Part shown: piece by piece, positions 32,998 through 35,109 of the stretch
How positions within the stretch are numbered: the first letter of the stretch is position 1
Layout: each line of letters begins with the position of its first letter
Source: Escherichia phage Flotzy
Length of the DNA stretch: 42,657 nt
Strand: one strand, 5' to 3'
Sequence record: PP925827.1
Position numbers and translations under genes: made by a program
The notes under the pieces: generated by a model
Database searches by the model: none
Told to the model about the DNA's origin: nothing
The model's input: only the letters and a program-made list of their open reading frames with translations

Positions 32998-33191
32998 TGG
33001 ACGGACTCCTGACGAAGATGGTTAATTTCGGCGTCAAGGCTCATTCGCTGGTCCATCGATTCCGTCAAGGCGGCAAATGTCACATCCAGGCGAGTGGCTA
33101 CCTCACGCATTAGAGAGGCTTCTGCTGGTGGCAGTTTCCCCGCCGCAGCATGGGCTGCGGCTACCAGTTCTTTTATCTTCATGCGAGGCAT
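32994..33191 (-). CDS. hypothetical early protein
   Basis: 65-aa ORF. Confidence 0.35.
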   Translation of the reverse strand: MPRMKIKELVAAAHAAAGKLPPAEASLMREVATRLDVTFAALTESMDQRMSLDAEINHLRQESVQ

Positions 33192-33718
33192 GCGCGTGAT
33201 TCCGTAAGCTCATTGAAACGGTTAATGAACAAGCCATATGCCTGGCCTGGGCGAAGAGGAACGATCTGGATAATGTCGCTGGCCGGAATACCTTCGAGGC
33301 AAGGCCAGAGTGAGCCGTCGTCGATATCCAGATCGCGGCGTTCCGTGGCAAGCATCACCAAATCGGCGTATTTCACTACCGCTGACATATCAGGGGTGAT
33401 GCTGAATTTGGCCCGGATCAGCTGTTCTACCCGCTCTTCAATGCGACGGTAATCTGGAAGCAATGCTTTCAGGGGGGCAGGGATGTCCTGGCAATAGGCT
33501 TCAGCTGCGTCATGCATCAGGGCTTCAAAGGCAAACTCTGGCGGCACAATTTGGCTGCACAGTACCGAGTGCTGGGCCACGCTGTAAAATTCCGGCAGAT
33601 GACCACTGAAGCGGCAGATGTGGGAAAGTGCGGTCGCAATATCCTCGATCTCTACGTCGTCAGTGGTTGAATTGAGGTAATCGAATTTCTTACCTGAAAG
33701 TGTCTGGATATAACTCAT
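33179..33718 (-). CDS. HD-domain phosphohydrolase (YfdR-like 5'-nucleotidase family)
   Basis: H...HD metal-binding motif (LMHDAAEAY) and downstream D; gene order YfdP/Q/R-like. Confidence 0.7.
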   Translation of the reverse strand: MSYIQTLSGKKFDYLNSTTDDVEIEDIATALSHICRFSGHLPEFYSVAQHSVLCSQIVPPEFAFEALMHDAAEAYCQDIPAPLKALLPDYRRIEERVEQLIRAKFSITPDMSAVVKYADLVMLATERRDLDIDDGSLWPCLEGIPASDIIQIVPLRPGQAYGLFINRFNELTESRACLA

Positions 33719-33853
33719 CGTATTTTCTTCTCCATATTTGGCAGCTGCACCTGCGCCAGTTTTGGGGTGTACGAATCCCTCGCCATTGGCGATTAATAAA
33801 GGGAATTACGCTTCAATAAATCCCCGCGGCGCCGGGGATTTAATGCAGAGAAA

Positions 33854-34684
33854 TTACGCTTTAAAGTTACCGATAAAGGTTTCAACCGGCTTGTCGGTGA
33901 ACTTCTCGATCAGCAGGTCCCGGAACTCGTTGGCGATAGCTTCTTCCTGGGCTTCCAGTTGAACGATGCGGAGTACAAACACCGGTTCCCCGCTTTTAAG
34001 CAGGCTGTTACGCAGGCTAAAGCGGCGTTCGCCCAGGCCTTCATATGGCACGCATTTGAACTCGAAGGCGACAGGCATCACGTCTTTACTGCTGGCTTCA
34101 ACGCTCTGCATCAGGGACTTTCTGCCGCCAAAATCTTCGTCTTCATGAGCTGCTTCCGAGACTTGTTTGATATTGACGCGACGAACGGCACCAGCTGCCT
34201 GCGCGATGGACAACACATTCCCGTCGGCATCAAATGCGCTCAGGAAGTCGGCCCAGTCCTCCAGCCATTCAGCAATTTCCTTCTGGCCCAGTCGATCGCC
34301 ATTTACCTGAAGTAGGGCTCGGAATGGCGCTGTCTTTTTGAGGGTGATTGAGGCGACGTTATCAGCATGGCCAGGGTTAGCCAGCGTACCGATATTGAAC
34401 ACGGAGCGTGCGGTCATGTTGTCAGCATCGATAAAGCATCGCGCTGGTTCAACTTCGTTGGCATAGCCAGCTGCATAACGCACAAAGTCAGGAATGCTGG
34501 TTGTGGTCATGGCACCGCGGAAACGAAAACGCTCCAGATCGAAACGCTCAAGGCTCTCTACGTTTACGCCATCAGGGAGGAGGGCAGTAGGGCATGCTGT
34601 TTCTTTAACTGCAGTGAGGTGATAACCGGAAAGAACAAGGTCTTTCACCTGCTGCAGGGCATTGCCGTCTAAAATCTGGGACAT
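33854..34684 (-). CDS. DUF2303/YfdQ-like phage protein
   Basis: 276 aa; position between YfdP-like and HD-domain genes as in the E. coli CPS-53 cassette (from memory). Confidence 0.5.
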   Translation of the reverse strand: MSQILDGNALQQVKDLVLSGYHLTAVKETACPTALLPDGVNVESLERFDLERFRFRGAMTTTSIPDFVRYAAGYANEVEPARCFIDADNMTARSVFNIGTLANPGHADNVASITLKKTAPFRALLQVNGDRLGQKEIAEWLEDWADFLSAFDADGNVLSIAQAAGAVRRVNIKQVSEAAHEDEDFGGRKSLMQSVEASSKDVMPVAFEFKCVPYEGLGERRFSLRNSLLKSGEPVFVLRIVQLEAQEEAIANEFRDLLIEKFTDKPVETFIGNFKA

Positions 34685-34737
34685 AAAATTTCCTTAATAT
34701 GTGGTCATAGGGATGTCAGTGATTTGTCTGCTGCGGA

Positions 34738-35109
34738 TCACTGTGCCGCTTTAAGCTTTCCGTCAACGCCGCCGTTGATCCCGAACAGCTGCCCCTGATC
34801 TTCCTGCAGGATGGTCAGCTTGCCGCCTTTGTTAACCCACATTGGTGTTTCGGTGGTGTCTTCTTCGGAGGCTTTACCGCGCGGTGTTGGGGTGACGTAG
34901 TTCAGCTTGTGCTTGATCTTGACGCGCTTCTCTTCGACGGAGTTACCCATACGCTCAATATCAAAGGTGAGGACTACTTTGCCTTTGGTACCGTTGTTCA
35001 GAACGCCAAGCGCGGTAGTGTTTAAAGCTGCCGCGATCTTGTTCATGAACACGCCGGCATCCAGTTCGCCCAGAAAATCGGGCACTACGGTCATGCGGTC
35101 ACTACTCAT
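34738..35109 (-). CDS. hypothetical early protein (YfdP-like position)
   Basis: 123-aa ORF at start of early-left cluster. Confidence 0.45.
   Translation of the reverse strand: MSSDRMTVVPDFLGELDAGVFMNKIAAALNTTALGVLNNGTKGKVVLTFDIERMGNSVEEKRVKIKHKLNYVTPTPRGKASEEDTTETPMWVNKGGKLTILQEDQGQLFGINGGVDGKLKAAQ

Follow-up and report, generated by a model that had tools for sequence, protein, structure and literature searches.

In E. coli K-12, yfdP, yfdQ and yfdR (b2359-b2361) belong to CPS-53, a decayed cryptic prophage in which they are followed by yfdS (DUF551) and yfdT. K-12 YfdR binds domain I of DnaA in a manner that depends on Phe46, and moderately inhibits the binding of DiaA and DnaB to DnaA (Noguchi & Katayama 2016, PMC4776307). 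Initiation was inhibited only when yfdQ and yfdR were present in multicopy together with either yfdS or yfdT, with extracts also inhibiting in vitro, while yfdP was not required, YfdR purified on its own had no inhibitory effect in vitro and loss of the genes produced no phenotype (PMC4776307). The same cassette is carried by Escherichia phage LLS (PQ299149), where gp39-gp38-gp37 occupy the same early-left position as in the phage considered here and are labelled in GenBank as yfdP family, DUF2303/yfdQ family and dNMP phosphatase. The labels yfdP, yfdQ and dNMP phosphatase are also given to gp37-39 by Zheng, Casjens, Davidson, Amundsen & Smith (Genome Res 2025, PMC12315714), who describe the LLS-type phages as being without known recombination genes.

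The DNA analyzed here, referred to as the window, is the whole stretch of 42,657 nucleotides from Escherichia phage Flotzy (PP925827.1). Its minus strand carries a yfdP-like gene at 35109-34738 (123 aa), a yfdQ-like gene of the DUF2303 family at 34684-33854 (276 aa) and a gene for a yfdR-like HD-domain phosphohydrolase at 33718-33179 (179 aa). As references we used the CPS-53 YfdP, YfdQ and YfdR proteins of K-12 MG1655, taken from NC_000913.3 and compared by BLASTP. Identity to the K-12 proteins is 62% for YfdP (E 1e-51, 123 vs 120 aa), 55% for YfdQ (E 2e-110, 276 vs 274 aa) and 66% over 177 aa for YfdR (E 5e-95, 179 vs 178 aa), while the order, sizes and orientation of the genes are those of CPS-53. 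A sequence-only reading of the window had recognized in three consecutive early genes the yfdP-yfdQ-yfdR cassette by order and size, and these comparisons bear it out. Judged by the same alignments, the window genes are orthologues of CPS-53 yfdP, yfdQ and yfdR. Each has a plausible ribosome-binding site, and all three are under purifying selection, with dN/dS values of ~0.09-0.13 where dS is not saturated. The two loci differ in what follows, as CPS-53 continues with yfdS and yfdT, whereas the window instead contains orf65, orf167 and a TraR/DksA-like gene. They also differ in context, the window being an intact phage genome rather than a decayed prophage.

Between the window and LLS, the cassette presents point substitutions only, with 97.0% nucleotide identity over 33179-35109, and LLS gp37 is 100% identical to the window YfdR. 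Phage Eeyore (PP925821) carries the same cassette with 94.8% nucleotide identity over the same interval. Elsewhere, the LLS repressor allele is of 208 aa, as compared to 231 aa in the window, and different genes lie between orf65 and the exonuclease, reflecting mosaic exchange. Both phages are Chi-rich types without a Rec module; the window, with its 24 Chi sites, is as rich in them as the LLS type. The cassette is not a new one, as GenBank and Zheng et al. 2025 both give these labels to LLS gp37-39. Because it is annotated in such a nearly identical published phage, the finding is real but ordinary. Within this window it matters little, and should be considered a correct identification of genes that are labelled in LLS and in many prophages.

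YfdR and its HD-domain relatives

In the PHROGs database, the window YfdR matches phrog_318, 'deoxyribonucleoside 5' monophosphate phosphatase', at E 2.6e-96 (K-12 YfdR matches it at 1.5e-109), with a weak secondary match to phrog_7076, 'dATP triphosphohydrolase' (E 1.8e-6). The metal-ligand quartet of the HD superfamily, H...HD...D, is present as H50, H69-D70 and D119, which align with the corresponding residues of K-12 YfdR, YfbR and Atu1052 of A. tumefaciens (PDB 2gz4). H50 lies within the sequence 'VAQHS', whose counterpart is 'VAQHC' in Atu1052 and, as aligned by eye, 'VSEHS' in YfbR. When the window YfdR is compared with K-12 YfdR and with YfbR, H69-D70, E73, D78 and D119 (of KYAD) are invariant. 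The H...HD motif named in the sequence-only reading stands, with H50, H69-D70 and D119 all kept on alignment. The closest solved structure is 2gz4, that of Atu1052, aligned over residues 5-172 at E 1e-14.

E. coli YfbR, a 5'-deoxynucleotidase (dCMP phosphohydrolase), has in common with the window YfdR and with Atu1052 the HD metal site H...HD...D, as well as the E and D of 'HDxxE...D'. However, its identity to the window YfdR is only ~27% and the C-terminal half differs. YfdR reached neither the cut-off of the YfbR-like Pfam family PF12917 (21.6 vs 25.9 bits, over residues 56-106 only) nor the equivalog cut-off of NCBIfam NF003009 (17.1 vs 122 bits). By these profile scores, the window YfdR is a relative of YfbR but not a YfbR equivalog.

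The YfdR module is best placed among the metal-dependent HD phosphohydrolases, in the branch of YfdR and Atu1052, and its likeliest activity would be the dephosphorylation of (deoxy)nucleoside 5'-monophosphates. Given the 66% identity to K-12 YfdR and the intact H50/H69-D70/D119, E73 and D78, the window protein is most likely such a (deoxy)nucleoside 5'-monophosphatase, and its effect in the early phase of infection would be a shift in the dNMP/nucleoside pool of the host. The proposed activity resembles that of Dmp of phage T5, a deoxynucleoside-5'-monophosphatase and early enzyme which, according to its annotation, converts dNMPs to deoxynucleosides. T5 Dmp was also considered as a homologue of YfdR and rejected, as there was no BLASTP match and as it belongs to phrog_415 rather than phrog_318; it should be regarded as an analogue only.

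Such an activity is reported for the K-12 protein, to which RefSeq gives the name 5'-deoxynucleotidase. [quoted passage not shown] As the reported affinity of K-12 YfdR for dNMPs is so much lower than that of YfbR, the true substrate may be something other than dNMPs. The window YfdR may also bind domain I of DnaA, as K-12 YfdR does. It had been claimed that the E. coli homologue is a 5'-nucleotidase which can interfere with DnaA-dependent initiation; the enzyme name and the contact with DnaA hold, but the interference does not belong to YfdR by itself, since inhibition needs yfdQ and, in addition, yfdS or yfdT.

YfdP and YfdQ: families, structures and gene order

YfdQ is a member of Pfam family DUF2303 (PF10065), scoring 212.5 bits against a cut-off of 26.6 and covering profile positions 23-269 of 269, and matches phrog_210 in PHROGs (E 2.9e-100). 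The protein is acidic (pI 4.9) and of 30 kDa, contains the invariant motifs RxRFRG and PGHAD, and retains the invariant residues R52, R54, R56, N97, H106, D108, Q134, D143, W144, R168, R225 and R239. YfdP matches phrog_204 (PHROGs, E 1e-41). Homologues of YfdP bear a precomputed PF27127 annotation, and our Pfam search with the window YfdP returned no family, PF27127 being absent from the matches. A core of the form PTxRGK...EEDTTxTPMYV is conserved over 21 diverse YfdP members, and the predicted fold (AF2 model, pLDDT 91.6) consists of a long N-terminal helix and, after it, an antiparallel sheet of three strands.

The sole solved relative of YfdQ is PDB 9o7m ('YfdQ Protein'), which contains 36 chains and aligns with residues 9-264 at E 3.9e-40. 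The protein in this structure is 99% identical to UEW68411 of Xanthomonas phage MET23-P3 and belongs to the DUF2303 family, as does the window YfdQ, with which it shares ~33% identity. In that Xanthomonas phage, a YfdP homologue precedes YfdQ, as in the window, but there is no adjoining HD gene, and genes for a RecT-like recombinase, an exonuclease and an SSB follow YfdQ. In the literature we found no paper describing 9o7m. The cryo-EM preprint on PhiXacm4-11, a CP2-like Xanthomonas phage, was considered as the source of the structure and rejected, since its deposits are 11BX and 11DM.

A Foldseek search with the YfdQ model (pLDDT 80) against PDB entries released up to 2026-04-08, a set that is without 9o7m, gave no match at E <= 0.001, and TM-scores were <= 0.18. 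Fold searches with YfdP and YfdQ yielded nothing informative, and in these searches neither protein presented a likeness to Redbeta/RecT/Erf/Rad52, Gam/Ku or SSB. Profile searches with both families against PDB sequences and against Pfam (E <= 1) returned nothing consistent except DUF2303 and 9o7m, and hhalign revealed no relationship between YfdP and YfdQ. One protein annotated as 'PF10065 + PF27127' (P0152) was considered as a Rosetta-stone fusion of the two. In this protein, encoded on a contig of 1.6 kb, the ~50 N-terminal residues of YfdP are fused to YfdQ lacking its first third. It is most likely the product of a deletion or an assembly chimera, and was thus rejected.

Both families are common, with 389 YfdP representatives among clusters at 50% identity and YfdQ relatives in at least 178 sequenced phage records. 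Of 184 viral loci, 181 have a YfdP gene as the next gene upstream of YfdQ and in the same orientation, and the others are accounted for by contig ends or by a misplaced ORF boundary. When YfdQ lineages were defined at 70% identity, yielding 25 lineages, all of them had YfdP as the immediate upstream neighbour of YfdQ (in one, L121, the adjacency had been missed by the spacing filter), while YfdR was adjacent in 5 lineages, in the vicinity without being adjacent in 4, and missing from 16. YfdP-YfdQ is spread over phages of Enterobacterales, Vibrio, Xanthomonas, Pseudomonas and Burkholderia, a taxonomic breadth that, for YfdQ, is read from source names and phage records. In the Xanthomonas and Vibrio phages, the pair is found by RecT, exonuclease or SSB genes and without the HD gene. 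YfdR-like proteins, for their part, occur in 335 phage records, including large Caulobacter, Bacillus, Stenotrophomonas and Rhizobium phages, none of which figure among the 178 YfdQ-containing records.

As the adjacency of YfdP and YfdQ is near-invariable and YfdR is facultative, the 'cassette' is best read as a pair plus a separate HD nucleotidase. A reading of the three genes as a single functional unit should therefore be given up in favor of an obligate YfdP-YfdQ pair with YfdR as a facultative neighbour. The strictly conserved unit is thus yfdP-yfdQ rather than the HD enzyme, and this sharpens the question to the job of the pair. The enterobacterial-type loci nonetheless keep the P-Q-R triad in 109 of 109 cases. 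Identities across these genes can be mosaic, as in one locus (L015) where YfdQ is 96% and YfdR 61% identical, which speaks for two modules. On the other side, the retention of the triad despite intergenic recombination argues for some functional coupling between YfdR and YfdPQ in these phages, and the multicopy phenotype of K-12 required yfdQ as well as yfdR.

Possible roles of the two modules

We consider it somewhat better than an even chance that enterobacterial lambdoid phages carry two neighbouring modules here, namely, a YfdR nucleotidase and an obligate YfdP-YfdQ pair that acts on its own in the replication/recombination phase. YfdP-YfdQ would accordingly be an obligately paired two-protein unit working alone in this phase of infection, and our best guess is that the two proteins may form a higher-order assembly whose target is DNA undergoing replication or recombination, and not small molecules. 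We arrive at this idea because of the gene context and the chain count of PDB 9o7m, the fold searches having been uninformative. A more specific version, in which the pair is a self-contained machine, a large homo- or hetero-oligomer on phage DNA serving in fork or end protection or as a recombination accessory, with the HD hydrolase recruited as a third member in enterobacterial lambdoid phages, is speculative and, in our estimation, rather improbable. If true, it would place a new class of phage DNA-transaction factor within a very common 'hypothetical' gene pair.

Alternatively, the triad could be one early unit for the takeover of host replication, with YfdR, bound to domain I of DnaA and aided by YfdQ, blocking the DiaA-DnaA and DnaB-DnaA contacts at oriC, such that host initiation is turned off and DnaB and precursors are freed for the phage. 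The K-12 results point in this direction, both the binding of YfdR to DnaA through Phe46 with moderate inhibition of DiaA and DnaB binding, and the inhibition of initiation by multicopy yfdQ and yfdR with yfdS or yfdT in vivo and by extracts in vitro (PMC4776307). The 66% identity of the window YfdR to its K-12 counterpart, the presence of the triad in 109 of 109 enterobacterial-type loci and the early placement of the genes, from pL, are also in line with a takeover. However, yfdS or yfdT was needed, and tblastn with K-12 YfdS and YfdT (E <= 0.01) found no homologues in the whole window, leaving the inhibitor set of yfdQ, yfdR and either yfdS or yfdT incomplete, with both of the latter missing. 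Moreover, the K-12 effects were obtained on overexpression only, with yfdP dispensable, YfdR alone non-inhibitory and deletion without effect (PMC4776307). Across phages, YfdPQ is found without YfdR in 16 of the 25 lineages, and YfdR-like proteins are found in many phage groups outside the YfdQ matches. We thus regard a takeover of this kind as unlikely. Interference of the cassette with replication, as suggested in the sequence-only reading, cannot be maintained as worded, since the published block requires yfdS or yfdT, which are absent here, and the published DnaA account should not simply be transferred to phages without yfdS and yfdT.

Returning to a pair that acts on its own, YfdP-YfdQ might specifically provide an unrecognized recombination, end-protection or fork-protection function that partly explains how LLS-type phages live without a canonical Rec module, with YfdR trimming or recycling nucleotides alongside. 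The lack of known recombination genes in LLS-type phages (PMC12315714), the 24 Chi sites of the window, the place of YfdPQ in Vibrio and Xanthomonas phages, with RecT/exonuclease genes on one side and SSB genes on the other, the 36 YfdQ chains of 9o7m and the invariant arginine cluster of YfdQ are all consistent with such a function. In phage JC1, furthermore, the DUF2303 protein gp10 was detected in CsCl-purified virions, and its authors suggested an association with DNA; as 47 of 63 gene products of another phage were found in purified virions, this mass-spectrometry evidence is weak. On the other hand, Zheng et al. (PMC12315714) judged a recombination role unlikely, noting that the gene cluster is also carried by phages whose Rec module is complete (ArgO145) and that some Rec-less phages do not have it. 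The acidic character of YfdQ (pI ~5) and the lack of fold likeness to Redbeta/RecT/Erf/Rad52, Gam/Ku and SSB count against it as well, and we hold this function to be doubtful, at the lower end of what is unlikely. The LLS-type phages, being Chi-rich and without a Rec module, offer a clean three-gene deletion. The sequence-only reading also suggested that the cassette may hydrolyse a nucleotide immune signal. Such an anti-defence role of the HD protein would involve cyclic oligo- or mononucleotides or (p)ppGpp-like alarmones as substrates, or else the depletion of a nucleotide substrate of a defence system. The points in its favor are circumstantial, namely, that HD domains elsewhere include phosphodiesterases, that YfdR has the weak match to phrog_7076 'dATP triphosphohydrolase' (E 1.8e-6), and that the genes are early and belong to the accessory part of a temperate phage genome. 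Nonetheless, the closest characterised relatives of YfdR are 5'-monophosphatases, the HD-GYP signature is absent from YfdR, and members of the YfdR family are widespread among large lytic phages, where they serve nucleotide metabolism. A PADLOC scan of six early-left proteins gave no matches, and we found no literature linking YfdR to defence. With no PADLOC matches and with relatives that are monophosphatase-type HD proteins rather than HD-GYP, the hydrolysis of an immune signal finds no backing, and we consider an anti-defence role very improbable.

Position of the genes in the early-left operon

The yfdP, yfdQ and yfdR genes lie on the cI strand, downstream of the terminator that follows cI, with xis, int and the exonuclease gene found further downstream. 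The cI gene, encoding an S24 repressor, spans 35828-36523, and a terminator scan placed its terminator hairpin at 35809-35791. Just downstream of this terminator are two operator-like inverted repeats of the form TTGCG-N5-CGCAA (35736..35773), which represent a putative OL/pL region. When one mismatch was allowed at most, six such repeats were found in the whole 42.6-kb window, at 35736, 35759, 36544, 36565, 36592 and 36642, the remaining four lying between cI and cro, with the last just inside cro. The assignment of the cassette to the early-left operon is confirmed by this arrangement, namely, the cI strand, a position downstream of the cI terminator and of the operators at 35736/35759, and a position upstream of xis/int.

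Within the cassette, the yfdP-yfdQ spacer is of 53 nt, while the yfdQ-yfdR spacer is of 135 nt and contains, on the minus strand, a G+C-rich 10-bp hairpin (33817..33842) with no U-run after it. The predicted RNA fold of this longer spacer has an energy of -43.6 kcal/mol (z = -2.73). The hairpin sets the yfdPQ pair apart from the yfdR block, and the contrast between this spacer and the overlap of yfdR with orf65 speaks for two modules. The yfdR gene is the first in a series, consisting of yfdR, orf65, orf167 and the traR-like gene, in which start and stop codons overlap. The start of orf65 (32994..33191, minus strand, 65 aa, phrog_12248) overlaps the yfdR stop by 13 nt, and this gene is found behind yfdR in 64 of 80 enterobacterial loci. 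It is not a homologue of yfdS or yfdT and should be considered as context, outside the K-12 cassette.

The pL leader contains an RprA-like stretch (35272..35408, minus strand), ~170 nt upstream of yfdP, which ends in an intrinsic-terminator-like hairpin (35301-35281) and a U-run. Such a hairpin would make yfdPQR delayed-early and dependent on read-through, and the three genes would be transcribed together, as delayed-early members of the pL operon in a lambdoid phage of the LLS/Eeyore type. As for the resemblance of the leader element to RprA, the match to Rfam RF00034 scores 43.2 bits, under the gathering score of 70 (E 0.0033), and an 18-mer at 35319..35302 is identical to nt 60-77 of the K-12 host sRNA rprA.

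Cassette genes and their place in the early-left operon

We compared the three cassette proteins directly with the reference proteins of CPS-53, a cryptic prophage region of E. coli K-12 MG1655. As the sequence-only reading had proposed, with exact coordinates, three consecutive minus-strand ORFs in the ORF list match yfdP-yfdQ-yfdR, namely a yfdP-like ORF at 35109..34738 (123 aa, 120 aa in K-12; 62% identity, E 1e-51), a yfdQ-like ORF at 34684..33854 (276 and 274 aa; 55%, E 2e-110) and a yfdR-like ORF at 33718..33179 (179 and 178 aa; 66%, E 5e-95), with the gene order, orientation and sizes of CPS-53. 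YfdQ is a DUF2303 protein over its full length (PF10065, 212.5 bits; cut-off 26.6). In PHROGs, YfdP and YfdQ correspond to phrog_204 and phrog_210, and YfdR to phrog_318, 'deoxyribonucleoside 5' monophosphate phosphatase'. Each gene is preceded by a plausible Shine-Dalgarno sequence, and dN/dS amounts to 0.13 (yfdP) and 0.10 (yfdQ) relative to a homologous cassette with a ~79% identical YfdQ, and to 0.09 (yfdR) relative to K-12. All three are genuine genes under constraint.

It should be noted that the cassette is already annotated and discussed for the closely related Escherichia phage LLS, and nothing about it is new in the window. At the DNA level it is 97.0% identical to LLS and 94.8% to phage Eeyore, and the HD protein matches LLS gp37 at 100% identity, a product labelled in GenBank as 'deoxyribonucleoside 5' monophosphate phosphatase', next to gp38 ('DUF2303/yfdQ family protein') and gp39 ('yfdP family protein'); precisely these three genes are discussed by Zheng et al. 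2025 (PMC12315714). A further stretch at 38627-38887 on the plus strand has 79% protein identity to K-12 CPS-53 YfdM, a putative methyltransferase, and CPS-53 and the LLS-type phage therefore share more than yfdPQR.

The placement in the early-left operon proved correct. A cI-type S24 repressor gene (35828-36523) lies on the same strand as the cassette, with a terminator hairpin after it (35809-35791). The palindrome TTGCG-N5-CGCAA, with at most one mismatch, occurs at just six sites in the whole 42.6-kb window: two OL-like sites directly after cI (35736 and 35759; span 35736-35773) and four OR-like sites (36544, 36565, 36592 and 36642; span 36544-36656), the first three in the cI-cro interval and the last at the very start of cro. 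At two mismatches the count is not above chance; the clustering of near-perfect sites is the sole informative part. Judged by this layout, the six palindromes form an operator-like OL/OR arrangement. The positions of cI, terminator and OL/OR sites thus indicate that the cassette is transcribed leftward from a pL-type promoter, with a leader of ~600 nt from the putative pL. Downstream of the cassette lie orf65, orf167, a TraR/DksA-like zinc-finger gene, an Rv2179c-like exonuclease gene, xis and int. The zinc-finger gene (32276-32497, minus strand) encodes a TraR/DksA-type C4 protein (TIGR02419, 73.5 bits) that is a candidate RNA-polymerase-binding factor, and the exonuclease gene (30813-31385, minus strand) a Rv2179c-like 3'-5' exoribonuclease or DnaQ-like exonuclease (PF16473, E 2.5e-72). 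Directly after the putative pL, a 51-aa ORF with a TTG start (35595-35750, minus strand), which carries no annotation in LLS, contains an arginine-rich stretch, SPRSSRRWRMNDRMIRKW, that recalls the ARM motifs of N-type antiterminators.

An obligate pair and a probably separable hydrolase gene

Starting from three queries (the enterobacterial protein, a protein from a Vibrio phage and a Xanthomonas-headed alignment), we collected 184 viral loci with YfdQ relatives, searched every ORF of these loci iteratively with the three window proteins, and sorted YfdQ at a 70% identity cut into 25 lineages. Directly upstream of YfdQ and on its strand, 181 of the 184 loci and all 25 lineages have a YfdP homologue, the three other loci being explained by contig ends or an ORF-boundary artefact. 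YfdR is adjacent to YfdQ in five lineages, non-adjacent within 6 kb in four and absent from 16. Two phages, MET23-P3 of Xanthomonas and 44E38.1 of Vibrio, have YfdP-YfdQ in the company of genes for RecT-like, exonuclease and SSB proteins and without an HD gene. YfdR-like proteins are found in 335 phage records, among them large lytic phages infecting Caulobacter, Bacillus, Stenotrophomonas and Rhizobium, and YfdQ in 178, mainly of Escherichia, Stx, Vibrio and Xanthomonas phages. The triad is kept in all 109 loci of the two large enterobacterial lineages, and the cassette genes of enterobacterial loci recombine independently, as in the viral locus L015, where YfdQ is 96% and YfdR just 61% identical.

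Within the window, yfdQ and yfdR are separated by a 135-nt spacer (fold z = -2.73) with a stable, G+C-rich 10-bp hairpin lacking a U-tail (33817-33842, minus strand), possibly an element of RNA stability or processing through which yfdPQ expression is uncoupled from yfdR. From yfdR onward, orf65, orf167 and the traR-like gene are joined by consecutive start/stop overlaps. The arrangement is best read as two modules: YfdP and YfdQ as an obligate pair, and the HD hydrolase at the head of a translationally coupled block of its own. Taken as a whole, with YfdR as a phosphohydrolase and YfdPQ as an assembly, we consider this reading slightly on the probable side.

A 1.6-kb Logan contig encodes a 231-aa protein (P0152) in which PF27127 and PF10065 occur together. 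We rejected it as a natural YfdP-YfdQ fusion, as it joins the first ~50 YfdP residues to the C-terminal two thirds of YfdQ and looks like a deletion or assembly chimera. A 471-aa ORF (8954-10369 of viral locus L129), with the look of a retron/group-II-type reverse transcriptase as judged from sequence, belongs to a family found 4-7 genes downstream of YfdQ in four loci, L129 included, from three YfdQ lineages.

Proposed roles and their alternatives

The HD motif predicted for the third protein was recovered on alignment: H69-D70, E73, D78 and D119 are invariant between the window protein, K-12 YfdR and YfbR, and the first histidine, H50 ('VAQHS'), aligns with the 'VAQHC' of Atu1052, whose structure (2gz4, E 1e-14) is the closest one solved. 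YfdR falls below the curated YfbR-family thresholds (PF12917, 21.6 bits against 25.9; NF003009, 17.1 against 122), and these comparisons place it in a separate YfdR/Atu1052 branch, outside the YfbR family. The protein would be a metal-dependent (deoxy)nucleoside-5'-monophosphate phosphohydrolase, active early in infection; that it instead hydrolyses an immune signal, as had also been suggested, is highly improbable. A second activity of YfdR would possibly be DnaA binding, and here the earlier suggestion of interference with DnaA-dependent initiation agrees with the literature. Multicopy yfdQ and yfdR together with yfdS or yfdT suppress over-initiation and inhibit initiation, with yfdP being dispensable (Noguchi & Katayama 2016, PMC4776307), and the binding of K-12 YfdR to DnaA depends on Phe46 and competes moderately with DiaA and DnaB (PMC4776307). 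However, purified YfdR alone did not inhibit in vitro and deletion of the genes had no effect (PMC4776307). As tblastn found no YfdS or YfdT homologue in the window, the replication phenotype is not simply transferable and the suggestion is weaker than it was put; an integrated DnaA-directed block of host replication is unlikely.

For the YfdP-YfdQ pair, the proposed mechanism is a separate higher-order assembly that would act in the DNA replication/recombination phase. When a library of 1.84 billion proteins is clustered at 50% identity, YfdP accounts for 389 representatives, each a single-domain protein of ~110-130 aa; it has no detectable relationship to YfdQ. YfdQ is acidic throughout the family (median pI 5.2), with an invariant RxRFRG arginine cluster and PGHAD motif. 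One YfdQ relative has been solved (PDB 9o7m, 'YfdQ Protein'; 99% identical to the MET23-P3 protein), for which we found no describing publication in the literature; its 36 chains per entry suggest a large YfdQ assembly. Profile searches of YfdP and YfdQ against PDB sequences and Pfam, and PADLOC, added nothing. A DUF2303 protein was detected at a low level in CsCl-purified virions of Burkholderia phage JC1, which is weak evidence because purified particles of another phage yielded 47 of 63 gene products. YfdQ overproduction is reported to lead to plaque formation by a resident phage. The DNA-transaction role is the weakest part of the mechanism and quite doubtful. That YfdPQ has a cryptic function in recombination or at DNA ends could be considered in view of the RecT-like, exonuclease and SSB neighbours in MET23-P3 and 44E38.1, and the window has 24 Chi (GCTGGTGG) sites (19 plus, 5 minus; ~1.3 expected by chance), clustered toward both ends, a richness without a Rec module that is common to the window and LLS as described. 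A hidden recombination role was, however, judged unlikely by Zheng et al. 2025 (PMC12315714), as phage ArgO145 carries the cluster together with a complete Rec module, and we also regard such a function as distinctly unlikely. The function of this ubiquitous pair is the question worth keeping.

An RprA-like element in the pL leader

An RprA-like element lies at 35408..35272, ~170 nt upstream of yfdP and on the same (minus) strand, where the Rfam RprA model RF00034 gives a sub-threshold match (43.2 bits, gathering score 70; E 0.0033). Its 18-mer ATTGCTGTGTGTAGTCTT (35319..35302) equals nt 60-77 of K-12 rprA and is followed by a terminator-like hairpin and U-run (35301-35272). The element has no annotation in the RefSeq/GenBank records examined and may merit its own follow-up. 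In 25 retrieved loci, LLS and Eeyore among them, an exact 23-mer occupies the corresponding position, and the block is present with up to four mismatches in 36 of 80 enterobacterial viral loci; most mismatched loci keep the first 18 nt intact, with divergence in the flanks, including the terminator stem. The element looks like a conserved seed-plus-terminator module; the phage may be carrying an imitation of the host sRNA's 3' part, or the module may serve as a conserved tL terminator.
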